This document shows positions 29,226 through 59,211 of a stretch of DNA of 64,000 bases, piece by piece. The DNA is from Chanos chanos (lineage: Eukaryota): contig NC_044504.1 in assembly GCF_902362185.1 (NCBI RefSeq), forward strand, positions 33,156,702-33,220,701, written 5' to 3'. Position numbers and translations under genes: made by a program. The stretch's first letter is position 1, and each line of letters begins with the position of its first letter. Below the pieces are notes generated by a model. The model did not search any database. It was not told the origin of the DNA and saw only the letters and a list, made by a program, of their open reading frames with translations.

Positions 29226-29543
29226 GTCAGTAAACTAAAATGTGTGAGAGTTTTTTGTTTGTTTGTTTCCTCATTTGTGTGTCTGTTTGTTGAGAATGCA
29301 AGAGAGTAATATCTGATGGTCCGCCATTCCAGACAAGAGTACTGTGATGCTGTCCTTTCCATAGAGACATTGTGTAGTTACCATAGAGACATTGTGTAGT
29401 TACCATAGAGACATTCTGCAGAACCGAGGCAGAAAATGGGTCTTACGGGGCCTTTCACCAGCAGCAGCATGAAATCTTGTGAAGGTCCACTTTGTGTACG
29501 CGGCATCACTAGTGCTAACTCTGAGACATATTCTGTATTGTAG

Positions 29544-29727
29544 CACCAGTGTGAAGTACTCTAAACCCAGTGTCACCGATGGCTCGCGTCTTCTGCTGGT
29601 ATGCGAGGTGGCTCTGGGTCGCTGCAGGGACCTTCAGAAGAAAGATACCACGCTGACCTCTGCCCCCAAAGGCTACCACAGTGTGCACGGAGTTCGCCGC
29701 TCCCCAAAAGTTCACTCTGAATTTGAG
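29544..29727 (+). CDS. parp4: PARP4 exon 12 (PARP catalytic core)
   Basis: ttgtag|STSVKYSKPSVTDGSRLLLVCEVALGRCRDLQKKDTTLTSAPKGYHSVHGVRRSPKVHSEFE|gtgctt. Aligns with human TDGTRLLLICDVALGKCMDLHEKDFSLTEAPPGYDSVHGVSQTASVTTDFE. Confidence 0.9.
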
Positions 29728-30157
29728 GTGCTTTTTTTACCTCCTTTTTTTTTAATGTTTTCTCCTTTTTCTCCCAGTTTGGGATGCTCAGATATCAGCA
29801 GTCTTGTAAGTAACCTCCTTCTTCTGTAATCACAGTTGAGGTGAATGAGGTTGCACCTGCCTCTTCCAAGGCGCATTGAGTTGCATAGTACGGCCAGCTG
29901 ACAAAGAACTAATTGACTATCAGTCACTGTGAATTACCACAGCTACACAGGGCCAGGACTCTGGCCAGTTAATCCGTCCATGGAACACAACTCGACAAGT
30001 GTCACCCAGTTAGGATTTGAGCCAGTCCCTCTAGATGTAGGGCAAATCTCTGTTAGACAATGCCTCAGTTGAGTACCACATCACTTAAGAGCCAGGCTCT
30101 TTAACACAAACAGTCCTTTACTTTTTTTCCTACTACGGGTGCAATCCCGTGTTTCAG

Positions 30158-30305
30158 GACGATGAGTACGTGGTGTATAGCCCGGACCAGGTCAAGATTA
30201 AGTATGTGGTCCAATACACGCTGGAGGGAGATCAGATGAAGACGTTTCAGCCACACATTGACATGTCTTTGGAGCTGACGGAGCCTGCTGTGACCTCTGA
30301 TACTT
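30158..30305 (+). CDS. parp4: PARP4 exon 13 (end of PARP catalytic domain)
   Basis: gtttcag|DDEYVVYSPDQVKIKYVVQYTLEGDQMKTFQPHIDMSLELTEPAVTSDT|gtgagt. Aligns with human DDEFVVYKTNQVKMKYIIKFSMPGDQIKDFHP. Confidence 0.9.
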
Positions 30306-30586
30306 GTGAGTCCTTAACGTTTTGGTGTGCTTCGTTCAGAATGACTGTCGCTATGGATACCATCACAGAACTATAAACGTTACCGACGGACACAGTGCAA
30401 AGTCTTTGAGTTTGACTCTCTAATTAAGTGTGTGTCCTGATCATCACTGATAAAGACAACCTGACATACTACCAGGGTTTAATCTCGGTTTCAATCTAGG
30501 GCCCATTAATCATAAGAAAATCACTGTTGCATCATGTACAGCACTCCATTTGGTGTTGACTGTTGTGTATATGTTTGTTCTTGTAG

Positions 30587-30729
30587 TGTCCAGCGAAGAC
30601 AGTGATGGGTTAGGGCTCACTAAGAACCCACTGGAGACCGTGACTGCTGGTCTACTCAACAGCAGCGGTGAGACCCTCCCCTTGCAGGCTGTCCATGTGA
30701 GGAGCAAGCTGATGGACCTGCTCTGTCAG
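30587..30729 (+). CDS. parp4: PARP4 exon 14
   Basis: cttgtag|LSSEDSDGLGLTKNPLETVTAGLLNSSGETLPLQAVHVRSKLMDLLCQ|gtacgc. Phase 1 in, phase 0 out. Confidence 0.75.
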
Positions 30730-30943
30730 GTACGCCATCATATTGTACTCCTATAAGTCACACTACACGCCACTGTGCAGAACCAAGCAATATTAGTGTT
30801 GAGCTTTATTACAGTAAAATGTGTTCACATGTCGTGTCATGTCATTCACTGAACTGTGTCGTGTTAATGGTTCGTCACTTTTGATTCTTGTTCTTAACTA
30901 AACCGTCTCCAACATGAACTCGCTCATTCACCTCTGTTTTCAG

Positions 30944-31075
30944 GTCATCATTTTCCAGACATACACCAATAACAGTGCCTCACCCATTGAGGCCAAATAC
31001 GTGTTCCCATTGGAGGAGACAGCAGCGGTGTGTGGTTTTGAAGCCTTTATTAATGGAAAGCATGTTGTTGGAAAG
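30944..31075 (+). CDS. parp4: PARP4 exon 15 (VIT domain)
   Basis: gttttcag|VIIFQTYTNNSASPIEAKYVFPLEETAAVCGFEAFINGKHVVGK|gtaagg. Near-identical to human VIVFQTYTNKSHVPIEAKYIFPLDDKAAVCGFEAFINGKHIVGE. Confidence 0.9.
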
Positions 31076-31209
31076 GTAAGGGAGCTCAGCAATAACAGCT
31101 AATCCCTGTGATAAGACGCCCTCTAATGTCTAATGGGATGACCAAAGTTTTTCTCGGTTACCGATTTACAGATAGCTTTACTTTTGTTGCTGCTGTGAGA
31201 CTCAGAAGG

Positions 31210-31241
<32 letters not shown>

Positions 31242-31306
31242 GTCTTTCTTTCTTTCTTTCTGTCTGTCTCTCTGTCTGTTTGTTTCGCTCACTCTCTCTC
31301 TCTTAG

Positions 31307-31393
31307 GTGAAAGAGAAGGAGCAGGCCCGTAAGGAGTATAAACAGGCCATACAACAAGGCCACGGAGCCTATCTGATGGACCAAGATGCCCCT
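31307..31393 (+). CDS. parp4: PARP4 exon 16 (VIT)
   Basis: ctcttag|VKEKEQARKEYKQAIQQGHGAYLMDQDAP|gtatgt. Aligns with human IKEKEEAQQEYLEAVTQGHGAYLMSQDAP. Confidence 0.9.
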
Positions 31394-31659
31394 GTATGTC
31401 TCATCTCCATCACTTCTCATATACATTTAATATAACAGTCTGCGTAAATCTGAGCAGTTATAGCATGACATTGATGAAAATTCTGCTCTGTCCTGAGTGA
31501 GTCACTCTAAGATCTGGAGTAAAAGTTTGATTATTACGTTCTACTTTCTCTTCTTTTTTGTCTAACTGATTGTGAATGTGGCTTATGTCGAAATTGAATG
31601 GTTGACACGATGTGCCCTGTTAAATATTTTCAGTAATGTTATTACCATGAAACTTTCAG

Positions 31660-31824
31660 GATGTCTTCACCATCAGTGTAGGAAACCTGCCTCCTGGTGC
31701 CACCGTCTTGATCAAAGTGACCTTTATCACAGAGTTGGTTGTGAAGTCCGGCTCGATTCTCTTCTCCCTGCCTGGCAGTGTGGCACCGTGGGAAAAGAGT
31801 TCAGCCCTGAATCAGAGAACTCAG
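31660..31824 (+). CDS. parp4: PARP4 exon 17 (VIT)
   Basis: aactttcag|DVFTISVGNLPPGATVLIKVTFITELVVKSGSILFSLPGSVAPWEKSSALNQRTQ|gtcaga. Aligns with human DVFTVSVGNLPPKAKVLIKITYITELSILGTVGVFFMPATVAPWQQDKALNENLQ. Confidence 0.9.
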
Positions 31825-31857
31825 GTCAGAGTCATACCATTCTCCTCACGCTGTCAG

Positions 31858-31884
31858 CCCCCCCCCCCCAAAAGGGGGGGGGGG
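31858..31884. repeat. Perfect C12-A4-G11 palindrome (hairpin-capable homopolymer inverted repeat) in PARP4 intron 17
   Basis: cccccccccccc aaaa ggggggggggg. Confidence 0.9.
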
Positions 31885-32062
31885 GTTGCCACCATTGTCA
31901 TTCTGCAGTTAACATTTACCAAAAATATCTCAGAGAACACAGTTATTGTTTTAGTTGCTGTTTCCGTGTTAACGTGATGTTGTTAGGAAACGTTGCTTTT
32001 CGTAAAGCGCAAATTCGATTTAACGTCTCTGTTCTCCATGCCGACGCATTTGTGTGTATCAG

Positions 32063-32106
32063 ACGACAGTGGAGAAGGTGTGTGTGGATGAGCTGACACC
32101 CGAGGG
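32063..32106 (+). CDS. parp4: PARP4 exon 18 (44-nt micro-exon)
   Basis: gtatcag|TTVEKVCVDELTPEG|gtaaga. Aligns with human DTVEKICIKEIGTKQ. The phase 0-to-2 transition is needed for the downstream frame. Confidence 0.75.
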
Positions 32107-32247
32107 GTAAGAATCTCTGTAGTCTTTTTTTTTTTTTTCTTCAAAGATTCCCTTGATGTGACAACCGCTCTTAAAAGCATTGGGTTGTTGTGTTAATGAT
32201 CACGGGTGATAGCGTAATCCTGTTTCTGTCTCTCTGAAAAACCTTAG

Positions 32248-32329
32248 GGAATTCTCTCTGTGCATGTCCGTTGAGATGCCATACGAGATCACCGACCTGA
32301 CCTGTGTCACACACCGTGTCAAAATAAAG
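32248..32329 (+). CDS. parp4: PARP4 exon 19
   Basis: accttag|EFSLCMSVEMPYEITDLTCVTHRVKIK|gtctgt. Aligns with human SFSLTMSIEMPYVIEFIFSDTHELKQK. Confidence 0.85.
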
Positions 32330-32332
32330 GTC

Positions 32333-32368
<36 letters not shown>

Positions 32369-32836
32369 TGTGTATATCCACTTTTGTCTAAATAAGGATG
32401 TATATTTGAGGTGTTTTGAAGTTTTCACTGTTCATGATGTTAAGGATTTTGATGATAACAATTTATCAATTCAAGACAATGTGTCTTCTTTCAAGTTGGA
32501 GCTTGTTTGAGAACAGACTAATTAAACAGACTTCAAATGAGTGTATATGTTGTGAATTATATAAATGATTCCCCTCTTAATGTGAAAATATGTACTCATT
32601 CATTCATTCATGCATTTAATTATTCACTTCTTAATGCATTTCCTTATTTATTTATCCATGGATACATGGACACCCTGCAGCAAACAAGTTCTGGCCCAGC
32701 GTACATGTTTGTCAAAGGAGAGAATGAAAACATTGCATTTTTATTTGGTGCAAATGAGTGTGTATTTATTTTGTTGGTGTATATAGTGTTGTGTGTCTTC
32801 TGGAGTGTGACGGTCATTTGTGTGTGTCATGGTCAG

Positions 32837-32974
32837 AGGACAGACTGTAAAGCAGTGGTCAGCACTCTGCCAGGGGAGACTCTAGGCTCAGACGGCTTCC
32901 AGCTCTCCTTTGGTCTGTCCCAGATCCACATGCCCAGGATGTGGGTTGAGAATCATCCAGAGAAAGATAGTCAG
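32837..32974 (+). CDS. parp4: PARP4 exon 20
   Basis: ggtcag|RTDCKAVVSTLPGETLGSDGFQLSFGLSQIHMPRMWVENHPEKDSQ|gtgcag. Aligns with human RTDCKAVISTMEGSSLDSSGFSLHIGLSAAYLPRMWVEKHPEKESE. Confidence 0.9.
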
Positions 32975-33211
32975 GTGCAGTTGTCTTGACTCACGTGCAC
33001 ACACACACACACACATACACACACACACTCATTACTTAAGTGTTACTCCTCTGCTCTGTAATTGTCTTCAAAATGCAGCTTTTTTTAGGATGATTAAGTG
33101 TGACATGATGGGGAGTTCACATGTACACACACACACACACACACACACAAACATGCACTTTTTCACCAAGAGCAAGTAAATTGTATTAACTTACCCATGT
33201 TTTCTCTCCAG

Positions 33212-33419
33212 GCATGCATGTTGGTATTCTACCCAGACTTTGAGACTAGCAGTGTGACTGGCTCTGATTCTCTGTCTGCTGTTAGCAATGTGATCATTCT
33301 GCTGGACACCTCTGAGTCAATGCGGGGAGAAGCCATGCTGAATAGCCGAAGAATTGCCCTGCAAGTTCTGAAAAGCCTGGACCGCTCTGTAAAGATCAAC
33401 GTAGTGTCCTTTGGCACAG
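33212..33419 (+). CDS. parp4: PARP4 exon 21 (start of vWA domain with MIDAS DxSxS)
   Basis: tctctccag|ACMLVFYPDFETSSVTGSDSLSAVSNVIILLDTSESMRGEAMLNSRRIALQVLKSLDRSVKINVVSFGT|gttaga. Aligns with human ACMLVFQPDLDVDLPDLASESEVIICLDCSSSMEGVTFLQAKQIALHALSLVGEKQKVNIIQFGT. Confidence 0.9.
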
Positions 33420-33730
33420 GTTAGACCTCTTTAAACGCATCATAGAATACTTAAATGTAACTCTAACGCTGGCTGTTTCTCTTGGCCTGTGTATGATTTC
33501 AACCAGTTTTAACTTCAGATTAATTTTAAAAAGTGAATTGAAGGTCGCTGGGGAGCACCACATAGAGACTCTTTCTATAGAGACCTTCATTTGAAAATGT
33601 GTCACGCTGATGCATCTTTGGAAGAACATATATCCCCAAGGCTGTCCCTTAAACACTTCCATACCTGTATGGATAAGAGTCTTTGTGAAGGCTTGAGCTT
33701 TGTACCATAAACTCTCTTAAACTTGTTTAG

Positions 33731-33801
33731 ATTACAAGGAGGCCTTCCCCTCCCAATGTGTGCTTGAGGATGTCCAGGAACAAGCCAAGAAATTCATCAT
33801 G
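33731..33801 (+). CDS. parp4: PARP4 exon 22 (vWA)
   Basis: cttgtttag|DYKEAFPSQCVLEDVQEQAKKFIM|gtgagt. Aligns with human GYKELFSYPKHITSNTMAAEFIM. Confidence 0.8.
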
Positions 33802-33970
33802 GTGAGTACCCACAATGCTCTCAAATCGTCTGCTGTCGGTGTTGATAGTGAGAGCATCTCATAAATGAGTTAGGTCTGACATTTAGACATTTCTCACTAA
33901 ACGCCCCACAGTCACCCGTGTGGTTAGCCTCTAACCCCTTACCACTATCTGTCATTTCACCTCCGTTTAG

Positions 33971-34158
33971 ACTTCTCCTCCTGTTGGCGGCAGCACTGAG
34001 TTATGGAGAACCTTGCGTAGCTTGAGTCTCCTGCCTCCGTCGCGAGGAGTTAGGAACCTGCTGTTGCTTTCTGACGGTCACGTTCAGAACCAGGCTGTGA
34101 CCCTGCAGCTCGTACGGGACAACGTACCCCACACACGTCTTTTTACCTGCGGACTCAG
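33971..34158 (+). CDS. parp4: PARP4 exon 23 (vWA)
   Basis: ccgtttag|TSPPVGGSTELWRTLRSLSLLPPSRGVRNLLLLSDGHVQNQAVTLQLVRDNVPHTRLFTCGL|gtcagc. Aligns with human SATPTMGNTDFWKTLRYLSLLYPARGSRNILLVSDGHLQDESLTLQLVKRSRPHTRLFACGIG. Confidence 0.9.
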
Positions 34159-34497
34159 GTCAGCAGCCAAGTGTCATGAATTTGATCGTGAAGTGGCTCG
34201 GTCTGGTCTTCCATAAACAGCTGCCTGTTAATGCCCTTTTGTTTTCAACGGAAGACAATGCACTGAGAAATCACACTGCACACAAATACAAACGGACTGA
34301 AAGACAGTATAGGAAAAAAATTGATATGCACTGTTGTCAGTCATAGACTCATAGTAGAAGTAATGCCATGCTAGCTCCAGACACATCTCCTTTATATATG
34401 TCTCTATTTTTGTGAGCTTAATTATGATGATGCTGATGATGATGCTAATGTGTGATTTTGTGTGTTTGTGTGTGTGTGCATGGCTATCCATAATCAG

Positions 34498-34597
34498 TTC
34501 AACGGCCAATCGGCATATGCTGCGAACCCTGGCTCAGGTTGGGGGCGGAGCTTACGAATTTTTCGATACGAAGACGAAGCACACTTGGACAGGGAAG
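34498..34597 (+). CDS. parp4: PARP4 exon 24 (vWA)
   Basis: taatcag|SSTANRHMLRTLAQVGGGAYEFFDTKTKHTWTGK|gttagc. Aligns with human STANRHVLRILSQCGAGVFEYFNAKSKHSWRKQ. Confidence 0.9.
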
Positions 34598-34966
34598 GTT
34601 AGCTGTTATCTGGTTCATATTCATTAAAGCTATTAAATACGAGTGTTGTAAATTTGGTTCTTGTAGCCATTGTGACTGTTTTAGACTCTTAGCGCTGTAA
34701 AGCCAGTATATCCTGACTTGACAGGCTTTTAACAGATTTTGTGACAATAGTATGTAATGTGTTAATCATGATAAACAGATTTGTCACATATGCACAAAAG
34801 ATGGCTGACCCTTTTACAAAGAGCGTCAAACATATCATAACTCAACAGGCATTCAGAAAGCACACGCTGGGTGTGACAGCATTGTAGCATATCTATGATG
34901 GTTGTAAAGAATATTGGTAATGGTGGTAACAGCGGTACGTTAAACAAGTCTTCCTGTCTCTTACAG

Positions 34967-35137
34967 GTGTCCTCCCAAGTCCAGCGTATGGTATCTCCAG
35001 GCTGTAGCTCGGTTTGTGTGAAGTGGCAGCAGTTTAACCCCACAGCTCCGTCTCCTCTCCAGGCTCCTGCTCAGCTCCAGGCCCTCTTCAGTAACTGCCA
35101 CGCCTTAATTTACGGCTTTGTGCCCCACTGCACGCAG
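34967..35137 (+). CDS. parp4: PARP4 exon 25
   Basis: cttacag|VSSQVQRMVSPGCSSVCVKWQQFNPTAPSPLQAPAQLQALFSNCHALIYGFVPHCTQ|gtacac. Aligns with human IEDQMTRLCSPSCHSVSVKWQQLNPDVPEALQAPAQVPSLFLNDRLLVYGFIPHCTQ. Confidence 0.9.
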
Positions 35138-35253
35138 GTACACAGCATCGCTGGGTCGACAGAAATGCTTTATGAAGTCGCCGAGAGTTTGGGGGGGGTG
35201 GATAGAGGGCGAAGTTTCAGGGCTTGTCTGATGGTGGTGTTTCTGTCATTCAG

Positions 35254-35334
35254 GCGACGCTGCTTGGTAATCTCAGTGGACAGGAGATTAAGACTATGGT
35301 TTCAACCACGGAGCTGCAGAAGACCAGAGGCACG
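35254..35334 (+). CDS. parp4: PARP4 exon 26
   Basis: cattcag|ATLLGNLSGQEIKTMVSTTELQKTRGT|gtgaga. Aligns with human ATLCALIQEKEFRTMVSTTELQKTTGT. The frame differs from the overlapping listed ORF 34895-35338. Confidence 0.9.
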
Positions 35335-35554
35335 GTGAGAAATGTCAAACAACAACTTTTCATCTCAAATAGATCATTGTACCTGCATTCTCAGCACTGC
35401 TAACCAAATGTCTACTATATGTATCTATCTCTACCTATGTATCTCTAGATAGATAGATAGATATGTTCTACATATCCTGTAGTTCATGTTTCGTGTATGT
35501 TTGTGTAGTTTTGTATATATGCATAATTATATGTGTCTAATTTCTTATGTTTAG

Positions 35555-35635
35555 TTCCTTCACAAGCTCACCGCAAGAGCCATCATCAGAGACTATGAGG
35601 ATGGCAACCTGGATATCAGTGAGGCAGAGCATGAG
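35555..35635 (+). CDS. parp4: PARP4 exon 27
   Basis: tgtttag|FLHKLTARAIIRDYEDGNLDISEAEHE|gtagag. Aligns with human MIHKLAARALIRDYEDGILHENETSHE. Confidence 0.9.
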
Positions 35636-37085
35636 GTAGAGTTTGTGTGACCTGACTGTGGTAAATTACTGTGTGTATTCTGTGAGAGAAGAAAAGAAGA
35701 TTTTTATGTCCTCAATGGTTATGCAGAACACAACAGAAAACTACAAATCAACTTTCAGGCTGGATCATTTAGTTAAGAGCGTCAGTATGTGACAGTTTGG
35801 GTAAAAAGAAACCATGGAATGAATTTCATCAGTGGTGAGATGTGTATATACTGTATGTGTATATATATATAGACAAACTATATTTAACAACAGTGTAATA
35901 AACAGTGTGGTTAAGCATATGTTTGAATGACAAGGAATTCAAACATATATCACTTTCACACCTCTCTAGTGACAAATAGGTACGATAGTTTTTAAATGTA
36001 ATAATGGTTTGTGGTGGCTGTGAGACAGACATGAAGCATGCGCTTGTGTGTCCAGGGACTGGTTTGAAACCGCAGCTGGTGATATGGGTACAGAAATACT
36101 GGAGTGTACCCAGGAGCTATGGCATTTGTCATTTGTCATGTCATCCTCCCTCAGCACTGGAGATAGATTTCTTCGTTTTTAACGCGTGCCCTGTTACTGA
36201 TATTTTAATAGCCGGCTGAACTTATTTATCAAATATCAACGTCCACTCTAATGTAACCCAGAGATCACTGGTGTGTTCATCTTAATGCAAATTAATCAGT
36301 ATGTTTGTTGTAATCACATGTACATCAATTAGGCTACTTCACTTGCAAATGAGTAAATTAGAATATAGTGACTAAAGCTTTGATCACTGATATCTTACTC
36401 CAGTCAGGATTTTCTCCCACATCAAAGTACCTGCCGTTCAAGCAGCACACATCCAAAAAATCTAAATGTTATCAGTGAACATATGAACGTGGATTGTATT
36501 GAATTAATTTTGTTTGCATGAATTTGAAGTCATTCCTAGCCACTGCTACAACTAACCCCACCTGTGAGGTGTGCTGGAATGTCTGGTCTTCTGCTACTTT
36601 TGGTTTAATTGTGAATAAGTGATTCAGTGACTGAATAGTATTGTTGTCAGAGAGTGTTCTTTTACACACTCTAACAACAACTCTATTCAGTTATTGAATC
36701 AGTTATTCGCAGTTAAACCAAAAGTAGCAGAAGTAAGGATGTTGGTTTAAGTGAGTGATAAATTTTTCCCTACTTTCACACACATAAACAAATCAAAAGG
36801 GATGAAAGGGGGAATGAGTGATAGTGCGTTGAGCATTGAGTATGTCCCGTTTTCCTCCAGTTTGCTCTGCGATCATTTTCACAAGGATCAGATGGGTGGG
36901 GCTGCAGCATAGACCACAAAGTCATTTGGTCAGAGCCGGCATACAGCTCACTGTTAACACAAGAGAGGCCCAGTATAAAATGATATGTCCAGCAAAATTT
37001 CAGTGAAACTGAAAAAAAAGATGGTGCCTTACTGATGTCCTTCCATACTGTTTTTTTTGTTTGTTTGTTTGTTTTTCTTTGACAG

Positions 37086-37181
37086 GAGAAGAAAGCAGAG
37101 CTGAAGTCTTACATCATTCAACTCAGTAAAGAGTTCTCGGTCCTCTCCCAGTTCACCAGCTTTGTAGCCATCGAAGAGAGG
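37086..37181 (+). CDS. parp4: PARP4 exon 28
   Basis: ctttgacag|EKKAELKSYIIQLSKEFSVLSQFTSFVAIEER|gtatag. Aligns with human KKQTLKSLIIKLSKENSLITQFTSFVAVEKR. Confidence 0.9.
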
Positions 37182-37406
37182 GTATAGTCACTTAATTAAA
37201 AAAATAAAAAAAAGAAAATCTCAAACACAGTACAGCTGTGACTCAAAAGACAATGAGTACGTCCACTAATGTAAAGCATGATAAACACTGCCTTGAGTTT
37301 ATTTACTGTTCTGTTCTATTTAAATGGTATGAAGTGAGTGGTAATAAATAAACCAATGACCAGATGGCAAGAAATATTTATCTTGTCCTGTGTGGCTTTC
37401 TCCCAG

Positions 37407-37523
37407 GACCAAAAGCAACAAGATTCTGGATTCACAGACATTCCGAAACTGATTGCCAAGGAGGATGTTGATTTTCTGCCTTACATGGACTGGCAGGAAG
37501 AGAGCTTTGAGGAATTGTTTGAA
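37407..37523 (+). CDS. parp4: PARP4 exon 29
   Basis: tctcccag|DQKQQDSGFTDIPKLIAKEDVDFLPYMDWQEESFEELFE|gtaaga. Aligns with human DENESPFPDIPKVSELIAKEDVDFLPYMSWQGE. Confidence 0.9.
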
Positions 37524-37601
37524 GTAAGAACATGCCCAAGCATCTCAGATACCACATTAGACTACACTTTACTGATTTTTCTGTTTGTTTGTTTTTTTAA
37601 G

Positions 37602-37664
37602 TTCGGCCTTGGTGATACGATTTCATTGTCCTGGTCTGATCATCTAGCTATTGATGGCTTAGAG
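37602..37664 (+). CDS. parp4: PARP4 exon 30 (less conserved linker)
   Basis: ttttttaag|FGLGDTISLSWSDHLAIDGLE|gtaggt. Weak similarity to human EDGLGVLPAF..LLDLSWTES. Phase 0/0, short introns. Confidence 0.5.
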
Positions 37665-37756
37665 GTAGGTGATGAATTTGAAAAAGGGCAAATAGCCAAA
37701 CAACTCGTGTGACATCATAACTTCCCATTTTCTGTTTTTTTTTTTTTTCTTTGAAG

Positions 37757-37840
37757 TTGGAAGAAGATGAAGACTTTTCAATGCCTCTTTCCTTTCTTGA
37801 AATGCATGAGTCATCTGATGGGGATTTTGGTGAGCCTATG
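37757..37840 (+). CDS. parp4: PARP4 exon 31 (less conserved linker)
   Basis: ctttgaag|LEEDEDFSMPLSFLEMHESSDGDFGEPM|gtgagt. Phase 0/0. Confidence 0.5.
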
Positions 37841-37929
37841 GTGAGTGAGAAACCTTCAGTAGGGAGACGTCAGAACATCTTCAATACCATCAGTCCTTCA
37901 CATCTTCTTGTTGGGTTCTTTCTCCCCAG

Positions 37930-39077
37930 GCTGTCCAGGATATTATTCAGGGGGGTCCTCTCAGTGAAGATGAAATTATAGGAGCTTGTGCCTTATCAAT
38001 GCCCCTTTCCCGTACTGTTCCTGGTCCTCCTCCACGTCCGCCCGCTTCTTCCATGCCCTCTCCTCGTACTGGTAGTGGTTTTGTGCCTCTTCCTCCTCCT
38101 CCTCCTCCACCTCCTCTTCATCCTACTTTGATATGTGATTCTCTTTCTTCACCTCCTCCTTTCATGTTTGGTTCTCTTCCTCCTCCTCATCTGACATCTT
38201 ATGCTTCTTCCCTTGGTTCTCAGTCTTCCTGCTCTTTAGATTATGAGCCTCCTGCTTTTTTGCCCATAAAAGGTCTCCCTCCTGTCAGAGGTTCTGCTTC
38301 TCCTCCTCTGCCTTCCAGGCGCTTGTCTGCTCTTTCTTCCGATTTGGGTTACGCTTCTCCTTCTCTGCCTTCCAGGCGCTTGTCTGCTCTTTCTTCTGGT
38401 TTTGCTTCTGCTCCTCCTCCTCTGCCTCTCATGGGCTTGTGTGCTCCTCCTCCTACTCCTCCTCCCATGTGCTTGTCTGCTCCTTCTTCCGGTTTTGCTT
38501 CTGCTCCTCCTCCTCTGCCTCCCATGCGCTTGTCTGCTCCTCCTCCTCCTCCCGTGCGCTTGTCTGCTCCTTCTTTTGCTTTTGGTTCTGCTCCTCCTCC
38601 TCTGCCTCCCATGCACTTGTCTGCTCCTCCTCCTCCTCCTCCTCCTCCCATGCGCTTGTCTGCTCCTTCTTCCGGTTTTGCTTCTGCTCTTCCTCCTCTG
38701 CCTCCCATGCATTTGTCTGCTCCTTCTCCTCCTCCTCCTCCCATGCACTTGTCTGCTCCTTCTTACAGTTTTGCTTCTGCTCCCCCTCCTCTGCCTCCCA
38801 AACGCTTGTCTGCTCCTTCTTTCAGTTTCGGTTCTGCTCCTCATCATCACCTTTTTGGTTCAATAAAAGGCAAAGTATCAAGAGCTCGTAAACCTCGCTC
38901 TGAACGTGAGGACATTCAGACTATTCACAACAAAGCTCAGTGTTTATCAGTAAATTCTGAAGAATTCGACCGTGGTTTAATAAAAAGTGACCGTGACCGT
39001 GACCGCCACCGTGCAGACATGGTTGTACCCATGGATCTATCCAGGAGAAAAGCAGGCGTAGTAACCATCGGCGCAAG
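37930..39077 (+). CDS. parp4: PARP4 exon 32: 1,148-nt exon encoding a proline/serine-rich repetitive C-terminal region (MVP-interaction region equivalent)
   Basis: ctccccag|AVQDIIQGGPLSEDEIIGACALSMPLSRTVPGPPPRPPASS...then about 9 tandem units of ~19 aa such as (LSAPSSGFASAPPPLPPMR)...SERED IQTIHNKAQ...KAGVVTIGAR|gtttgg. The donor gives phase 2, which is required by the conserved downstream exons. Confidence 0.65.
38290..38850 (+). repeat. Intragenic coding tandem repeat (about 57-nt period, CT/CCT-rich) inside PARP4 exon 32
   Basis: Reiterated ...ctgcctcccatgcgcttgtctgctccttcttccggttttgcttctgctcctcctcct... units encode LSAPSSGFASAPPPLPPMRL variants. Low-complexity antisense ORFs are produced on the minus strand. 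Confidence 0.8.
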
Positions 39078-39164
39078 GTTTGGGAGGTTTTTTTTAAAAA
39101 TTGCACTTTTTTGGATTACGTGTGTGCTCTCAGGTGTTTAAATAGTTCTCATGCTGCTGTTTCA

Positions 39165-39249
39165 GTTATCCTCAGATTTCTGAGCAAAAAGGTTTCAGAC
39201 GTCCCACTCAGCAGATGGAGGTGGGGAAGCTTTTTGACCTCCAACACCA
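39165..39249 (+). CDS. parp4: PARP4 exon 33
   Basis: ctgtttcag|SYPQISEQKGFRRPTQQMEVGKLFDLQHQ|gtaaat. The tail KLFDLQHQ aligns with human ELLSLQTE just before the DGFWKL motif. Confidence 0.65.
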
Positions 39250-41150: not shown

Positions 41151-43195
41151 TTGGCACTTTTGAAAAGTTACGTACATTAAAAGCCTGATACTTTTAAGAT
41201 TTTGACTCAAGTTTTGTGTGTGTGTGTGTGTGTGTGTGTTTTTTCAAGATTTAAAATTATGCAATATTTTCTGTATTTGATTTGTAGCAGTTACTGAGTT
41301 GGCCTTAAAGACATTCGTGTTTGTTGAATTTCAGTATTCTGATACAGCTGTCCCAGCAAGCATACTTTATACTGTTTTTATAAAGATTTGATAAGGCCAT
41401 TTTACATCATACCACAATCACAAGCCTCACTTGTTTAATACCTGAAAGATGACAGTATCTATTGGAACAAAAATCAAGCTTTAGGTCTTACTATTCTTCT
41501 TCTTAAAATAATGTGTTTATAGAAAAAAAAAAGTATGATTTCATGATATCAAAAAGATGAAACAACAACATGACTGAAACAGCAGAAACTAAATTCATAC
41601 AACATAGTAAATGATGTAAAATCATGTGCATCATACAAATGCATACAGATTAAAACAGGAAGATTTTATCAATATAATCCTTGCCCTTAGACTTCATACA
41701 AATTTTTGCTCTCAGGGCAGTAGCATACTCCGTCATGTAACATTTTTCACACCTCACCATATGACTCTGATGGTTGTGGTATACCGTCTCCCCACGAGAT
41801 GCGGTCTTTGGAGTTGCGAGAATTTGACTACACAAGGAATTTCAAGCAATACTCCTACTTTGGCTTACGAGGCTTTTTCAGACCTAAGTGGACCAGTTGC
41901 CCTCCAAGAGTTGAATAACACACGCACACACACACATATATATATAACTTCTATATGTCATGACATCTATAACATCTATATATCAACCATTTAATGAGTA
42001 CACAGCGAAACAAGGCTCAAAAGCACAGTGTGGGGTTCCACAGAACTTCTCGTTGTCTGAGGTTGTGGTTCTGGTTGCTCCAAAATGCCAACAATTAATG
42101 GAGGAGGACACGAGATGTAACCAAACCCATGCTTGTGAACACCATCCCTGCAGGAACAGAAGAAATCATTTGAAAGATACACTTGAGAACGTATAGGGTT
42201 ATACGAGGAGCATCTGTAGTTGTACACACCACAGTTAGCAGTGGATCGATTCAAGCTTCGTGCTTTGGGAGCACAGACGTTCAAGCGGAGAGCTGTGTCT
42301 CCCACTCAAGTTTTCTGGGGGCCATTGGGTAAATTGTTTCACTTGTCTTGAGGTCATAATAGCATTGTAGGCCATTTTCGGTGTTTGAAAAACAATTGGG
42401 ATAACTAATCCGATAGGATCTGTGGGTGTGCGTCTTTGCATGAAACTTTAAGTAGGTGTGACTTTAAACAGGCATCAAAATCCACATACCAAACCATAAA
42501 AAACTCTCAGAGTCACACACATGGACTTTAATCATTTAATTATTTTTGTCCAAGGTTTGTTTTGAGGTAGTGGTGCTAATGGTACCTTTGAAAGCCAACG
42601 CTTTTGAAAAGGTTGGGATAAAAAGGTTACTAGATAGAGCAAATGTATCATTATTTTATGTATATTTCAGTTGAGCCCATTCGTTTTTAGCACACACCTC
42701 CTAAAGACAATATTGACTTAAGGGGCAGTTACAACACTCACTCCTCTAACTTGAGGCCAGAGGCTTAAGCAAGGACATGGCATACAGGCAAGGAAGAGGT
42801 GTGGATCGACAGGAGAATGCAGTGTCCCACCATGCAGCCTGTTGAGTCATTGTTCACGGACGCCGATCAGAAGAACAGATCACTCCACGTGAATCGTTGC
42901 ATCATTATCATCAAGGCTTAGAGAGGATTCTCACTATGGCCTCATTTGGTCAAATCATCTTCTGGGGGTGGAGTATCCTAGACGTTGTTTTCCGTAATAA
43001 CATCCAATAGAACATTTCAAATGTATATTTGCAGACGGACGTTTTATCCTGCTGCGATACGATGTTGACCGCAACGTGTTGTTGATTTAAGTGTGAAAGG
43101 ATACAAATTATATTTTTTTATTAGTTACATATTATGTTCTTTGGGCTACTTGTTTTTTTTTTTTCTCATAAATTGTTTTGTCTGTCTGTTGCAGC

Positions 43196-43259
43196 ATGAT
43201 CGTCCTCATATTTATAATAAGTGGACTCATCATTCTCATTTTGGCTTTGGCATTTTCAG
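43196..43259 (+). CDS. vtcn1: VTCN1 (B7-H4)-like exon 1: start codon plus signal peptide, phase-1 donor
   Basis: ttgcagcATG: MIVLIFIISGLIILILALAFS(G)|gtaggt. Resembles the human B7-H4 leader ...IISIIIILAGAIALIIGFGISG. An acceptor immediately 5' of the ATG implies an upstream non-coding exon. Confidence 0.7.
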
Positions 43260-43424
43260 GTAGGTTTGTTCAAAACCGTCAGTGTGTCAGTATGTGTTAA
43301 ACCATTATGATGTTCAGGTTCCTGTGCTTTCCCATGTTAATATGAGCATCTTCAGTCCTCTTTTTTTGTGTAAAATAGATAAACAGAGCTGTTTGCATGT
43401 CCGTCCTGTCCATGTGATTCCCAG

Positions 43425-43787
43425 TTTCAAACGGTTTTGTGGAAAGCAGTGACCTCTTTCCTGTGGGGAATCTGGGGCAGGATGTAATCCTGCACTGCAG
43501 GTTCAATCCCAGCAGTGGGACCGGGGTGAAAATGAATGATGTGTCAATCACCTGGGAGAAAAAGGGACTCAGCGGAGTGGTGTACCAGTACAAGAATGGA
43601 GCAGCACAATTAAAAGACCAAAACCCACTATTCACAGAGAGGACTCAGCTTTTTACAGATTTCATCACGCTGGGCAATGCCTCCCTGCTGCTGAGGAGCG
43701 TAAGGATGGAGGATGCCGGCGTTTACCAGTGTAGCGTTAGTGCTCCTGCAAGCCGAGGGACTATCAGTGTACATCTCAGAGTGGCTG
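43425..43787 (+). CDS. vtcn1: VTCN1 (B7-H4)-like exon 2: IgV domain (363 nt, phase 1/1)
   Basis: tcccag|VSNGFVESSDLFPVGNLGQDVILHCRFNPSSGTGVKMNDVSITWEKKGLSGVVYQYKNGAAQLKDQNPLFTERTQLFTDFITLGNASLLLRSVRMEDAGVYQCSVSAPASRGTISVHLRVAG|gtatga. Aligns with human B7-H4 GEDGILSCTFEPDIKLSDIVIQWLKEGVLGLVHEFKEGKDELSEQDEMFRGRTAVFADQVIVGNASLRLKNVQLTDAGTYKCYI. Confidence 0.85.
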
Positions 43788-43884
43788 GTATGACATCCTA
43801 TCCTCTGGGGGAGGAAGGAAGGGGGGGGGGGTGCAAAATTGTGTATGTTTGTGTACATTGTGTGTGGGTGTGTGAGTGTGAGTA

Positions 43885-43929
<45 letters not shown>

Positions 43930-44329
43930 TGGGGGAAAAAGAGAATTCACATTAATAAAGTGAGATGTCATTAAAAGGTAGAGAAAAAAAAAGACTTAGT
44001 CGCGCTCGTAAGTCATAAATCAAAAACACTCCGAACTGTAGCTATTAATAGAACGGTATTTCAACAAGGTTTAAATGCTGAGAGACTTCCTGTAACTAGT
44101 TGCTTTTATGTTTAGACCCATTAACAAAGGCCCTTAAGATCATACAAATATTTAAATATTGGGCATTATTCTGCAGGGAAGACCCATTTGTCCATGTGTT
44201 TGGTTCTGTCAAAGAAATCCAGGCCATGATTTGAACTGTATCACATATTCTATGATTTTAGGATCTTAGGATTTCTTCCTGATAATCAGAAAGCATAAAA
44301 TGTATGTCACAAATGTAATGTCTTTCCAG

Positions 44330-44584
44330 CTTTCTCAGCTCCTACATTCACCATCTCAAACACAAGTCTGACTGCTGAAGCACAGAGATGGCTCCCCAAA
44401 CCAGATGTGAGCTGGTCGGACTATGCAGGGAATCCCTTAAACGCGAGCACTCATTTTTACAACAATTCTGCTGGGATACTACGAATAGTGAGCACCCTTC
44501 AAGACCCAGTGAGAATGGATGACACATATACCTGTGTTATCCAGAACATTCTAGTGAAAGCTGTCTCCCAGGCAACACTGACAG
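44330..44584 (+). CDS. vtcn1: VTCN1 (B7-H4)-like exon 3: IgC domain (255 nt, phase 1/1)
   Basis: ctttccag|AFSAPTFTISNTSLTAEAQRWLPKPDVSWSDYAGNPLNASTHFYNNSAGILRIVSTLQDPVRMDDTYTCVIQNILVKAVSQATLT|gtaaac. Aligns with human GAFSMPEVNVDYNASSETLRCEAPRWFPQPTVVWASQVD...NNTYSCMIEN. Confidence 0.85.
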
Positions 44585-44875
44585 GTAAACAACGCACTTC
44601 TCTATGTATAAGAGTACACAAATATGATAAGATGCCTGGGAAAACAGCACGCTCCCACTTCAAAAACATTGCACATACAACGATACCAACTCGTAACAAG
44701 GGCAGGCGTGTCAAGAATTTAAAATGATCTCACAGCATAGCAGTTGATGAAGCGGTGTGTTTCAAAGGAGTTATGTTTCAGGAATTATAAGCGTAGTGAA
44801 GTTACCATTACCATGAAAAGATAAATCACATAAGAGTTCATTATTTCTCCATGTCTTTTTTTTTTTAATGTCCAG

Positions 44876-44991
44876 ATCAACAGATGCAAGAGAAGACATA
44901 TTTCACATTTAACATAGCTTCACCAAAACTGATGCCATCATGTTTGACCCTCTTTGCTGCCTTCTGCCTCTTTTCATCCAAGACGACATGA
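44876..44991 (+). CDS. vtcn1: VTCN1 (B7-H4)-like terminal exon: short stalk plus hydrophobic tail (stop TGA 44989-44991)
   Basis: aatgtccag|DQQMQEKTYFTFNIASPKLMPSCLTLFAAFCLFSSKTT*. Phase-1 compatible. A short hydrophobic C-terminus like the B7-H4 GPI/TM-type tail. Total 265 aa. Confidence 0.5.
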
Positions 44992-45919
44992 TATACAGTG
45001 GATGTCCCAGCAGATACATGAACTACAGGCATTGGCCATGACGCTGTTTTATGCAGATTTACTGGTCTACTACCACAAGGTCTTTTTGTCAGCCTGTAAG
45101 CAGAGAAATAAAACAGTCTGTCCTGCATGTTGCAATGTAGGATGCATGATCTCAAGGTTGAGCTGTTAAAATGAGATGGAAATGAGATCATAGATATTTA
45201 TAGTTATTCTAGGAAATCAAAGTACTTGGTCATCATGGAGATGTGTTGTTCAGATAGAGAGAAAACTGTTGTCTTGTTGTGCTTAGGCTACTGTGTATGT
45301 GAACATCCAGGTGATTATTTGAATTTACATCGTCTCATTTTTTCTCTCCCATAATCTACCGTTATACCCCTCTCCCTCTCCTCAAATTGTGAACTTGTAG
45401 TTTTTCTAAATAAAAACAAAATAAATGCGTTTTAAATAAACACCAAGTGACGTTTTGTACTCTACTTGGGATCATTAGTCTTTCAAACCAGCAGATGGGG
45501 ACACTAGGATTTGCACCGCGTAGTTAGCTTTGCTAGGGTTCGCTTAAATGCCTTTAAAAACAGGAGTTTTGCACATTAGGCCACGCCTGTGACCAGTGTG
45601 ATGATTGGTCTGAGTCTTGGGGTTTCGAATATCATGTGCAAGAATACACAAGAGATAACTGTAACACTTTAAAAGCTCTGAAGTGTGGTAAAGTAAAGTA
45701 GGCTATAAAAAGCATATGTTGTGCTGCACATATAGAAATAAAGAAGCTAGGCTGTAGAGTGGGCAACTGTTTTGAGCATTCAGTTGAGTTTAAGTCCCAC
45801 TTTTTTCCCAATTGAGTTTACTTTTCGGTGAACTCAAACTTTAGCATAACTTCATACTGCCAATACGCTGCCTTTGTTACTTCGTTATTTTAACATTTAG
45901 GTTGAAATATCCCAGTAGC

Positions 45920-46419
45920 ATGTCACATTGTAACGACAATCCGACACAAGAAGAAGAAAAGGGACCACAGAAACCAAAATCAGATGAAAGGTCCCCCCTG
46001 AATGATAACGGGTATGTCACCAACAACTCTAAAGCTATCTGTGGCGTTTGTAAGCGAATGTATAGAGACCCAAAAATTCTTCCTTGTCTTCATACGTTTT
46101 GTGCTGACTGCGTCCGACAACTTGAACCGTTCTCAGTTTTGGGAGTTAACGGTAAACCGCTCTCACGAGAAAATCCGGCGCTTTTACGCGACCAAGCAGC
46201 AGTAACGGTTTTATGTCCCGAATGTGACTCCGAAGTGGACCTTCCGTCATCGGGGGTGGATGGGTTGACCACAGACCACCTTGCTCTTGACGAGGTCTTT
46301 ATGGAAACGCTTTTGATCGAAAACAGCGTAGTATGTGACCTGTGCGCCGATAGCGATGCTGAGAAACGTTGTGCGGTGTGTTCCGTGAATCTTTGCGAGT
46401 TCTGCAGCAAAGCCCACAG
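45920..46419 (+). CDS. trim45: TRIM45 exon 1 (RING plus B-box 1)
   Basis: MSHCNDNPTQEEEKGPQKPKSDERSPLNDNGYVTNNSKAICGVCKRMYRDPKILPCLHTFCADCVRQLEPFSVLGV...LCPECDSEVDLPSSGVDGLTTDHLALDEV...VCDLCADSDAEKRCAVCSVNLCEFCSKAH|gttagt. Aligns with human TRIM45 CPLCLGLFKAPRLLPCLHTVCTTCLEQLEPFSVV...ILCPVCDAQVDLPMGGVKALTIDHLAVNDV...VCDLCNDREVEKRCQTCKANLCHFCCQAHR. Confidence 0.9.
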
Positions 46420-46614
46420 GTTAGTGGCTGTACAGTTTGATTTTTCGTACTCTATTCCAAACTTCTTACTTGGCCTGATTGCATTTTCATAGTAATTGTT
46501 AGTTATCACTAGCGTTTTTTACAAATTCAAAATTTTTGTTTGAGGATATTTAATAGTCTGATACTATGAGCTCCAATCTAGGAGTGTCATAATTTGTAAT
46601 GATTGGTTCTGCAG

Positions 46615-47366
46615 GAGACAGAAGAAGACAGCTGCTCATTCCATTCAAAACCTGGAAGAGCTGAAGTCTCAGGGTCATCTCTCCAGACCTGTCATGTGCT
46701 CTCTGCACCCAGGCCAGGAACTACGTCTTTTCTGTGACCCTTGTGATATCACTGTCTGCATCGAGTGTGCCTCCACTTTTCACAGAGACCATAAGTGCAC
46801 CCCTACTCAGGACGTCATCAATCGCCATGGAGACAATATCCGAGAGCTTGTCACCGGAAGCCTTCGGCCACGGCTCGAGCGCCTGGAGGAGTCCTTGCGT
46901 CGGGTAGAAGTTTCTCAGGAGGCTTTGCACACGAAGGCTGAGACGCTGGCAAAAGAGATAAGAACGTTCGCAAGAAGCTACGCCATTGCGGTAGAAACCC
47001 ACTGCTGTTCCCTGCTACGCACACTGGAGGACATGAGGCTACAACGAAGGAACCAGCTCCATCTGCAGAAGGCACAGCTGCAACAGGCGTTGTGTGACGC
47101 ACGGGGCGCGGTGGAGTTTGCTGAACGTTTGCTCACGTGTGGGTCAGATGTGGAGATTCTCAGCACCAAGGGGGTCACCATGAGGAGGCTGGTAAACCTG
47201 GTGGAGTCTGGATATGACCCCCACCCAGCAACCGTCGCCCAGGACAGTGGGAGCAGCATTTGCTTCCTGCCTCTGGAGATCGCAGGACAGGTGGACGGAT
47301 ACCCTGTGGTAGGAGTCTTACATGACAAAACTGTGGACCCCGGCAAGTGCACCATCCAGGGAGAAG
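46615..47366 (+). CDS. trim45: TRIM45 exon 2 (B-box 2, coiled coil, start of filamin repeat)
   Basis: ttctgcag|RRQKKTAAHSIQNLEELKSQGHLSRPVMCSLHPGQELRLFCDPCDITVCIECASTFHRDHKCTPTQDVINRHGDNIRELV...LQKAQLQQALCDARGAVEFAERLLTCGSDVEILSTKGV...DPGKCTIQGE(G)|gtgagg. Aligns with human RRQKKTTYHTMVDLKDLKGYSRIGKPILCPVHPAEELRLFCEFCDRPVCQDCVVGEHREH...LQKAQLEQLLADMRTGVEFTEHLLTSGSDLEIL...DPAKCVLQGED. Confidence 0.9.
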
Positions 47367-48575
47367 GTGAGGAGTGGCACTCCATGAAAGGCATATCAAT
47401 TACACACTTAGTTCTCAGACCGATACTCCACCAGCCGTGGCAGTCCAATAACGTTGTGCTTAAGGTTAATGTCTTCATATACAGACATATCATAGGCAGT
47501 CTATACTGTAAACTGTATGAGCCTCCAGTACATGATAATTAGAAACACTGATACTATCACATTTTTTATCACATTTTTATCACTCTGGTATTGTTTTAGT
47601 CAGAGCGCTGTGGAAAAAGTACCCGCATAGCTGTCTTGGTCTAGGTCACGTCCTGAAACTTTGCCAAATAACTGTTTTCCTATGTAAACACAAATACACG
47701 CACACGTTACATAAACACAAAGCAAACCTCTTTGCATGGATGGATTACAAGTAGGTGACATGAGTAAGGGCTGCATCACAGACCAGGACTCGCGAACCAG
47801 GGTTTTTGAGCTGACTCTGTGTGTAAATAAAGCTGGCGTTTTTTGTTTTGTTTTAAACCTGGATATATCCTTTGTTCTTATTACAGAATCTGAATATTAC
47901 TGCATGTGCATGCTTTTTTTTCTCTTGCCTGGTGATATTATGGTGTCTCAAACAAAGTTCGATGAAAGACGTATGAATCAGTCCGTAAGGTGACGAGAAA
48001 TATTCTTCCCTCCAAATGTCCTTCCTGCTTGTATCAGCAGTCATGTTTGTTGGTGTATCACTGTGTGTTGTAAGGTTGTCATCATTATTCAGATGTGATG
48101 CAAATTGGATGTTTAGTGCCAAAGAGATGGTGAGCATGTGAAAGCCTACATTTGCTGCCTCACCATGTGGAGCAGCTGAAGCTGTAAAAACCCAGTGTTT
48201 CTCAACAACAGCTGGTGCAGTCATGGAAGACAGATCCCCAGTTCCTAGTGGCGGGTCAGTCACAGGCTCTGTGATTAGAGGATAGCTCAGCTTCAGTTCA
48301 GTACATTCATGGAGATATCAGATGTGGAGAAACTCTTGTCTTGCAAATATAATGTTCTATACACGACTCTCCATTTCGGTTCCTCAACAGCCTAATCAGT
48401 GTTTAAAAAAAAAAAAAAAAAAAAGTACACCTTCAGTTTACTTTTTCGCAGAGGGAATTAAGCATGACCGGACATCCACTGGTTACGTGCTTACCGCAGC
48501 ATTTTTAAAACTGTCCTGTGTCAGCACACAAGTCCTTCCATCTGTTTGATCTCTGATGGTCTAACACCCCGTCAG

Positions 48576-57500: not shown

Positions 57501-58802
57501 TTTTCATAAAGGTTACCTTTTTACTGTGCAGTTGTACGACACTACTCGTTCATTCTCTTAAAAAGACTGGATAGTCAGTGTGAAGGGTTATCTTGCTTTT
57601 CTTCTGTGGATGCAGCGACGCAGGCCCGTTTCAGAAACGCTGTTAGCAAGCTAATACAATCAGAAAACAGTATTCACACCAATGCAGGTCCGAAAACGAA
57701 ATGAGACGGAAGCTTTAATATTTCATTAAAAAATATTTGGGCAGTCTCGCCGTGTTGACATGAGAGTCTGACGAATTGGCATATCTGTCTCAAGACTGCA
57801 ATTTTGTTTACATTTTGTTCGCAATATTATTGTCCTGAGATTTGGACAGATTTTCTCCACAGCTGACAGGAGTACAGTCTTCTTACACAGAAATATTTCT
57901 TCAAAGTCCTTACGTGATTAGCTTGCAGACTACAAACGGGATATGTTCACGACTGAAGACCGTGGATCAGAATGACTGAAAGACTATCTAAGTAAGTGGA
58001 TGCAATCGTTTTCCGTTGATAGTATTTGCCGTTCTGTTTCCTGTTCTATGTAAGGACCTTATGTGTTCGCCGACTGTCAACTTCATAAAAACCTGAGGGA
58101 TATTGAGGATAATGTAGCAGTTTCAAACCGTATAGCTTTGGTAAATTATTGTAATTCAGAAGCACTGACAGCTGTCAGAAATCGAAAAGATATATGGCGT
58201 CAAATTTAAGGACTGCAGAAATTATTTTGCAGAGTGGTTTTGTACTGTTACCACTGAAAGAGATGGCAGTCTCGTGACGGTGACGTGATGAGTCGTGTAT
58301 TATCGAATGCTTACAAGTGCTCTGGGGGGAATCATTCGTAGTGTCGAAATGTAGACCTATCCCCCACACCTCGAGCGTCAATACAGAAATGGATGTATTC
58401 ATTTATTTATTTTTTATTTTTTGCGATATTGCATTTTTTGTATAGCTATTGTCCTGGGAAGATGCAGTACACCCAATATAGACAGACTTACTTTCTCCCG
58501 TGAGAAAGTACCACTTGGTCGGCTATTTTTCTATAGTAGTGAGGATTGAAATTGCTATGGTAACCGCAGCTCATTGTCAGATTGCTAAATGTCCACTCCT
58601 TCAATATTACAGATGACAACATCTAATTGTTTTCATAATTTTTCAGATCAGAGGTGCCCGTGGTCCAGATGCTCCTTCTGCCCATTAAAATCACCATGGT
58701 TTGACAGTTAATCATATGGTTGCTGCAATGAGATAATAGAGCTGCCTGTTCAAGACAACCTTGACGCTTGTCCATCCACACACTCTCTTACAATAGACGA
58801 AC

Positions 58803-59116: not shown

Positions 59117-59211
59117 GTAAGACCAGAGAGGAGGAGAGATCACTGCCAGCTTCGGTCCATTTACAACATTTTCCTAATCCTGACCAAGGTGTTTGTGTTT
59201 ATGTTTGTGTT

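Follow-up and report, generated by a model that had tools for sequence, protein, structure and literature searches.

In mammals, VTCN1 (also B7-H4, B7x or B7S1; 1p13.1-p12 in human) consists of a leader, an IgV domain, an IgC domain, a stalk and a hydrophobic C-terminus in this order and has no cytoplasmic domain. The leader of the human protein is divided over two exons, and soluble B7-H4 exists in mammals. The related B7-H3 (CD276) has a true transmembrane segment with a cytoplasmic tail and is encoded at a separate locus, and in butyrophilins an IgV-IgC ectodomain is joined to a transmembrane segment and, in most cases, to a B30.2 (PRY/SPRY) domain in the cytoplasm. Fish B7-H4 was reportedly first described in 2009, by Hansen et al. 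(Mol Immunol 46:457) and by Sugamata et al. (J Immunol 182:6799). Here we compare with these systems a locus of the milkfish (Chanos chanos) that lies in a window of 64,000 nucleotides (nt) of contig NC_044504.1 (positions 33,156,702 to 33,220,701 of the forward strand; all coordinates below refer to this window) and that a previous reading of the DNA letters, the original prediction, had interpreted as a B7-H4-like immune checkpoint gene. The encoded protein shows the same order of parts as mammalian VTCN1.

The region 42936-44991 on the + strand is almost certainly an intact five-exon milkfish orthologue of VTCN1/B7-H4, a B7-family cell-surface glycoprotein; the gene is already known and annotated by NCBI. 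We rebuilt it as five coding exons for a protein of 276 amino acids (aa), and an exhaustive search of GT-AG paths returned a single exact solution for this protein, with exon lengths of 32/65/363/255/116 nt. All introns are of the GT-AG type, the first being in phase 2 and the last three in phase 1. The coding part of exon 1 (42936-42967, 32 nt from the ATG) encodes MASFGQIIFWG, including the first two bases of Gly11, and ends at the donor GTGGAG of the phase-2 intron. Exon 2 (43195-43259, 65 nt) encodes the hydrophobic leader segment MIVLIFIISGLIILILALAFS and is followed by a phase-1 intron. The IgV domain is encoded by exon 3 (43425-43787, 363 nt, 121 codons), with Cys57, Cys135 and the GNASL motif, and the IgC domain by exon 4 (44330-44584, 255 nt, 85 codons), with Ala169 and Cys222; both exons are in phase 1 at both ends. 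The coding part of exon 5 (44876-44991, 116 nt including the stop codon TGA at 44989-44991) specifies the stalk DQQMQEKTYFTFNIAS and the weakly hydrophobic tail PKLMPSCLTLFAAFCLFSSKTT. The ectodomain has four N-X-S/T sequons. The protein ends with ...CLTLFAAFCLFSSKTT, and a signalling domain in the cytoplasm would find no space. Intron 3 contains a (GT)n(GA)n microsatellite with a G-run (43850-43925), and the first consensus polyadenylation signal AATAAA after the stop codon is at 45107-45112 (+ strand), with further candidate copies on the same strand at 45409-45414, 45420-45425 and 45435-45440, all read from the sequence.

The original prediction had the gene start at the ATG at 43196-43198 and end at the TGA at 44989-44991. 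Both codons are present, and its 265-aa model could be rebuilt exactly; it equals the 276-aa protein without the first 11 residues. The true start, however, is 260 nt further upstream, in exon 1, which had been overlooked: this exon is spliced to the acceptor at 43194/43195, one base ahead of the ATG at 43196, and that ATG codes for the internal Met12. The lengths of the IgV and IgC exons (121 and 85 aa) and the phase-1 introns around both had been recognized correctly, and our GT-AG reconstruction agrees with them. The signal-peptide exon, which had been placed between two phase-1 introns, has a phase-2 intron at its 5' end, since the 32-nt exon 1 precedes it, and a phase-1 intron at its 3' end. 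The NCBI milkfish VTCN1 protein (P0001) and about 100 orthologues share the N-terminus encoded by exon 1, and a MAS.GQ start was found in 69 of 120 orthologue matches. The 32-nt exon 1 is also present in Liparis and Danio, where the exon lengths are 32/65/360/252/113 nt and 32/65/360/255/110 nt, respectively, so that the leader exons of milkfish, Liparis and Danio are identical in length to the nucleotide. Teleost VTCN1, represented at NCBI by about 100 fish species, is the same gene, with the five-exon plan and flanking genes as in Liparis and Danio.

In a large protein search, the top match was the NCBI entry 'V-set domain-containing T-cell activation inhibitor 1 [Chanos chanos]' (99% identity, 88% of the query), and the remaining 119 matches listed were fish proteins with 45-64% identity, mostly named VTCN1 by their source; in all, more than 100 fish proteins of that name were the best matches. 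A HMMER scan of 1.84 billion representatives recovered proteins source-named VTCN1 from camel, bats, turtle, frogs and a caecilian. BLASTP aligned the protein with camel VTCN1 over 277 aa, starting at Met1 and reaching into the tail, at 34% identity (E = 1e-55); the identity to a hand-typed human VTCN1 sequence was 33%. The N-terminus MASxGQIxFW, which precedes a hydrophobic segment of about 25 residues and is encoded with it on two exons, aligns with camel, bat and frog VTCN1. Within the window, tblastn placed the IgV exon at E = 1e-80 and the IgC exon at 4e-54, far above chance, and showed no second copy. The single-copy status claimed in the original prediction thus holds for this window, and for this window only.

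When the PDB sequences were searched with nothing but the IgV exon, human VTCN1 (4GOS) reached 82 bits in one domain, compared with 45 bits for PD-L1, 41-43 bits per IgV for B7-H3, 41 bits for MOG and 33 bits for BTN2A1. The likeness of the IgV domain to human B7-H4 that had been proposed earlier is borne out by this score, and the GNASL and DAG.Y.C motifs are shared with mammalian VTCN1; the motif string by which the likeness had been expressed was loose, as the fish ITW corresponds to IQW in human and is preceded by 12 residues and not by 7. Pfam recognized a V-set domain in the IgV part (49.7 bits, E = 4.8e-13; cutoff 26 bits). In the alignment of orthologues, 13 positions were invariant and more than 50 nearly invariant. 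An AlphaFold2 model built with an alignment of 80 orthologues had a mean predicted local distance difference test score (pLDDT) of 91.5 and a predicted template modelling score of 0.78 and contained IgV and IgC beta-sandwiches.

The neighbouring genes support the assignment independently. Directly downstream on the + strand is a TRIM45 gene, whose open reading frame (ORF) begins at 45920, about 0.9 kb past the VTCN1 stop codon, encodes a RING domain and two B-boxes, and has fish TRIM45 as its best matches (70-76% identity). Upstream, also on the + strand, is a PARP4-like gene at about 24500-39200. On a 35.8-kb contig of Liparis tanakae, PARP4 (with VIT, VWA and PARP4_MVP-ID), VTCN1 and a RING/B-box gene follow one another on one strand, and in Danio aesculapii the gene after VTCN1 is of the RING/B-box/Filamin type (TRIM45). 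TTF2, TRIM45, VTCN1 and MAN1A2 are consecutive at human 1p13.1-p12 in a table of copy-number variants (PMC9356560). The TRIM45 neighbour is therefore shared by milkfish and mammals, whereas the local order is PARP4-VTCN1-TRIM45 in fish and TRIM45-VTCN1-MAN1A2 in human. The PARP4-VTCN1-TRIM45 synteny thus supports VTCN1 orthology independently of the protein matches.

Several observations weigh against this interpretation of the locus or against parts of it. In the test for the canonical disulfides, the IgV pair Cys57-Cys135 was present and the IgC pair was incomplete. The Pfam model C2-set_3 (butyrophilin-type IgC) scored 25.2 bits, slightly below its cutoff of 27. The sole public milkfish model has a last exon without an anchor, and the anchored form in milkfish is deduced from conservation. 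As for function, fugu B7-H4 reportedly promoted T-cell growth and did not inhibit it in the work of Sugamata et al. 2009, although PMC5732181 cites that study otherwise. Even in mammals, the B7-H4 receptor on T cells is unidentified (PMC5732181). By homology, the leader would take milkfish VTCN1 into the endoplasmic reticulum, the C-terminal hydrophobic tail would hold it on the outside of the plasma membrane, and the IgV face would engage a partner on T cells and modulate their activation. Modulation of T cells by the milkfish protein is inferred by homology only, as is the label 'immune checkpoint' that had been attached to the gene. In our view the locus was recognized correctly: it holds the orthologue of a well-known gene, already annotated, in the chromosomal setting where it is expected, and its significance is modest.

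The 3' end of the gene can be read in two ways. Exon 5 at 44876-44991 encodes ...SCLTLFAAFCLFSSKTT, and its acceptor is preceded by a tract of 13 T. Its product DQQMQEKTYFTFNIASPKLMPSCLTLFAAFCLFSSKTT fits the pattern of fish tails (..V..KTYF.F[NS].AS, a few polar residues, a short hydrophobic end) and matches the tails of the 69 scanned fish orthologues that bear the stalk motif; cyprinid tails match it in tblastn as well. In position the exon corresponds to the last exons of Liparis and Danio, and its 116 nt are close to their 113 and 110 nt. Phe248 is at least 90% conserved, and residues 242-250 form a confident strand in the AlphaFold model. The NCBI milkfish protein (257 aa) is 99% identical over exons 1-4 and then has a different, anchor-less last exon: it continues as ...TLTD|DMIYSGCPSRYMNYRHWP, a tail of 18 residues that we reconstructed exactly from an alternative terminal coding exon at 44983-45041 (+ strand, acceptor AG at 44981-44982, stop codon TGA at 45039-45041). 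The acceptor of this exon lies inside exon 5, and its peptide is devoid of a hydrophobic anchor.

We searched the window by tblastn with our model, with fish isoforms of 333, 299, 289 and 286 aa and with tetrapod VTCN1, and found nothing but the five exons and the alternative end of the NCBI model. In particular, this search revealed no other transmembrane-coding exon between 44585 and 45900, where the original prediction had suggested that alternatives might be found, and no further coding exon ahead of TRIM45. Since the fish tails match exon 5, its size and position are as in Liparis and Danio, and no other transmembrane-coding exon came up in this search, we conclude that exon 5 is the conserved orthologous anchor-coding exon. 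The terminal exon proposed in the original prediction is thus conserved across fish, although the NCBI milkfish model takes 44983-45041 instead.

The milkfish gene could alternatively end only at 44983-45041 and encode a secreted protein without an anchor, which would make exon 5 an unused relic. Milkfish has no public annotation other than the NCBI model, a reasonable pyrimidine tract (TGCCTTCTGCCTCTTTTCATCCAAG) precedes the acceptor at 44982, anchor-less or truncated models exist for other fish (Megalops P0004, Coregonus P0054), and B7-H4 has been described in compartments besides the cell surface (reviews, PMC13212089). Against this, the upstream acceptor at 44875 has the 13-T tract, the open frame 44876-44991 keeps the stalk motif KTYFTFN.AS and the hydrophobic end just as the 69 motif-bearing orthologues do, the size of exon 5 fits Liparis and Danio, and the DMIYSGCPSRYMNYRHWP tail had no counterpart among the orthologues compared. 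We therefore consider a secreted-only product improbable. Either the NCBI model is in error or it represents a minor soluble isoform, and the public milkfish model probably shows such a minor or erroneous tail-less isoform. Both 3' isoforms may coexist; the isoform using the 44982/44983 acceptor, if real, is presumably secreted. Among the matches listed, the anchored tail exon 44876-44991 occurred in no milkfish protein, and as a conserved anchor-coding exon it merits addition to the milkfish annotation.

With exon 5 as the last exon, milkfish VTCN1 ends in a short hydrophobic C-terminus without a cytoplasmic tail or signalling motif, and its orthologues end alike. Compared with mammalian VTCN1, the milkfish tail is shorter, less hydrophobic and unrelated in sequence (15% identity). 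Its strongly hydrophobic core comprises just 11 residues, CLTLFAAFCLF, and its best Kyte-Doolittle window of 19 residues reached 1.48 (fish median 1.56; classical transmembrane threshold 1.6). A signal for a glycosylphosphatidylinositol (GPI) anchor has small residues at omega, omega+1 and omega+2, then 5-10 polar residues as a spacer and lastly a hydrophobic end of 10-20 residues. A cluster of small residues, N254-I-A-S257, is found 6-7 residues upstream of the hydrophobic core, with the spacer PKLMPS. Read by hand, the small residues, the polar spacer and the hydrophobic end are compatible with such a signal, whereas the terminal SSKTT is slightly atypical.

Judged by its sequence, the tail appears compatible with a GPI signal and a minimal transmembrane segment equally. 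The short hydrophobic tail announced in the original prediction is therefore present, and of the two anchors proposed there, GPI or short transmembrane, neither is singled out. GPI addition near N254-I-A-S257 has, in our estimation, a little less than an even chance; a type I transmembrane segment of minimal length, followed by a tail of at most five residues, is a serious but somewhat weaker candidate, and the remainder falls to other anchor arrangements. Partial sensitivity to phosphatidylinositol-specific phospholipase C has been described for mammalian B7-H4 (PMC3817299), and a current review describes B7-H4 as a type I transmembrane protein (PMC13212089). The fish tails, which are short and weakly hydrophobic and have a conserved cluster of small residues ahead, provide comparative evidence on the question of whether B7-H4 is held by GPI or by a transmembrane segment.

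The incomplete IgC disulfide is due to position 169 in the B-strand of this domain (milkfish context ...SLTAEAQRW...). This position was Ala in 111 of 117 ray-finned-fish VTCN1 proteins, including that of gar, and Cys in none of them; the sturgeon and paddlefish representatives likewise had Ala. In tetrapod VTCN1, the IgC B-strand position was Cys in all eight proteins compared. The partner Cys222 was kept in 103 of the 117 fish proteins (88%) and is an unpaired F-strand cysteine. The missing cysteine is a lineage-wide difference and no ground to exclude the milkfish gene from VTCN1. For work on the expression of fish B7-H4 ectodomains, this means that the canonical IgC disulfide is absent and that Cys222 is mostly retained in an unpaired state.

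The loss of this disulfide (Ala169), together with an IgC score slightly below the Pfam cutoff, might also suggest a decaying, non-functional copy. However, Ala169 is the normal state in ray-finned fishes, the reading frame is intact over five exons with all splice sites GT-AG, the structure model is of high confidence (the modelled IgC domain had pLDDT values of 94-98 as means of 10-residue blocks), and the protein retains 45-64% identity to its orthologues with their invariant and nearly invariant positions. A pseudogene is thus very unlikely, and we keep to the interpretation of the locus as an intact VTCN1 gene.

The leader of this gene is unusually well conserved. Among fish, the identity was 0.71 for exon 1 and 0.65 for exon 2, compared with 0.54 for the IgV and 0.58 for the IgC part. 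The sequence MASLGQIIFW is identical between bats and salmonids, and the first ten residues of milkfish VTCN1 (MASFGQIIFW) are nearly identical to those of the mammalian protein (MASLGQIIFW in bats). About 25 residues of the leader form a hydrophobic stretch, which is long enough to cross a membrane and has no basic residue ahead of it; its best Kyte-Doolittle window of 19 residues reached 3.30, and AlphaFold predicted residues 4-32 as a helix of 29 residues (pLDDT 84-96). In this respect it is unlike the C-terminal tail, which is poorly conserved and marginally hydrophobic. Cleavable signal peptides usually have a short hydrophobic core and evolve fast. Because the hydrophobic stretch is long and highly conserved, the leader is atypical as a cleaved signal peptide. 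It could have a function of its own, for instance as a signal-anchor helix that stays uncleaved and holds the protein, either by itself or in combination with a GPI or weak C-terminal anchor, but we see this as a long shot. No mention of B7-H4 together with 'signal anchor' was found in the open-access literature. If an N-terminal anchor were real, then, taken with the missing IgC disulfide of ray-finned fishes, it would mean that the membrane topology of B7-H4 has been mis-described; as it stands, the conserved leader is a small unexplained feature.

The last alternative is that the locus is another B7 or butyrophilin gene (B7-H3/CD276, PD-L1 or butyrophilin-like) that merely resembles VTCN1. 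Of the paralogues, B7-H3 comes nearest in sequence, each of its V-C pairs scoring 70-73 bits; its fold is likewise IgV-IgC, and the motif LF.D....GNASL.L..V...D.G occurs in both B7-H3 and milkfish VTCN1. The full-length search of PDB sequences even placed 4Ig B7-H3 chains on top (E = 5e-41), and one fish match (P0088) was source-named 'CD276 antigen isoform X2'. The lead of B7-H3 is, however, an artefact of the 4Ig duplication, in which the duplicated V-C pair is counted twice: in the search with the IgV exon alone, its score per IgV was half that of human VTCN1, and B7-H3 was rejected as the best match. Foldseek matched the model with a probability of 1.00 to the ectodomains of PD-L1, B7-H3, BTN, ICOS-L and B7-H6 in the PDB, with PD-L1 on top. 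As no full VTCN1 ectodomain has been solved, this search confirms the fold but cannot separate the members of the B7 and butyrophilin families. The diagnostic N-terminus (MASxGQIIFW), the leader on two exons and the short tail can be aligned with those of mammalian VTCN1, and the gene adjoins TRIM45, as human VTCN1 does; the N-terminus and the TRIM45 neighbour fit VTCN1.

Butyrophilin membership was ruled out separately. The stop codon at 44991 is followed by polyadenylation signals from 45107 onwards and by the ATG of the next gene at 45920, the butyrophilin had the lowest IgV score, and B30.2 exons cannot fit into the roughly 0.9 kb between the end of the gene and the TRIM45 ATG. No B30.2 domain was found among the downstream open stretches scanned against Pfam. 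Taken together, membership in another B7 or butyrophilin family can be set aside as practically negligible, and the VTCN1 identity given in the original prediction held in searches in which butyrophilins or other B7 members could have come out ahead.

The flanking genes were recognized in pieces. The first part of TRIM45 (45920-46489, + strand) contains the RING domain and a B-box according to Pfam, and the second part (46562-47539, + strand) the second B-box and a coiled coil. In the PARP4-like gene, Pfam identified a PARP catalytic piece (29473-29826), a VIT piece (31651-31974) and a vWA piece (33104-33421), all on the + strand. The same region contains a BRCT-looking ORF on the + strand (24519-24863), for which no Pfam match was obtained. 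A cyprinid entry named 'VTCN1' (P0072, 438 aa) has BRCT domains and looks like a misannotated fusion of PARP4 and VTCN1. Further downstream on the + strand, the open stretch 58797-59117 (MTTPALLPLSGRRIPTLSPGASSFPHHRATLRLSEKFILLLILSAFITLCFGAFFFLPD...) had no Pfam match; we take it to resemble the first coding exon of MAN1A2.

Some further features of the window were noted. In the PARP4-like region, a tandem repeat at 28221-28583 (+ strand) has a unit of about 22 residues (…PYHHIYKPLPSHLQTLTITFTN…) and is open in all three + frames, and a (CA/TG)n-rich microsatellite block at 27305-27800 produces spurious His/Thr-rich and Cys/Val-rich ORFs on both strands. The open stretch at 37849-39138 is long, of low complexity and rich in Pro and Ser; strong strand skews at 38-40 kb fall in the same place. 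At the other end of the window, between 2 and 20783 on the - strand, there are four tandem paralogues resembling CALHM/FAM26 (calcium homeostasis modulator), with two coding blocks each. The first (474-1043 and 2-394) and the fourth (20079-20783 and 19587-19991) were recognized by the Pfam model Ca_hom_mod with E = 1.4e-15 and E = 1.9e-5, respectively, and the second (4171-4740 and 3703-4101) and the third (10818-11366 and 10360-10755) were assigned by similarity of sequence only.

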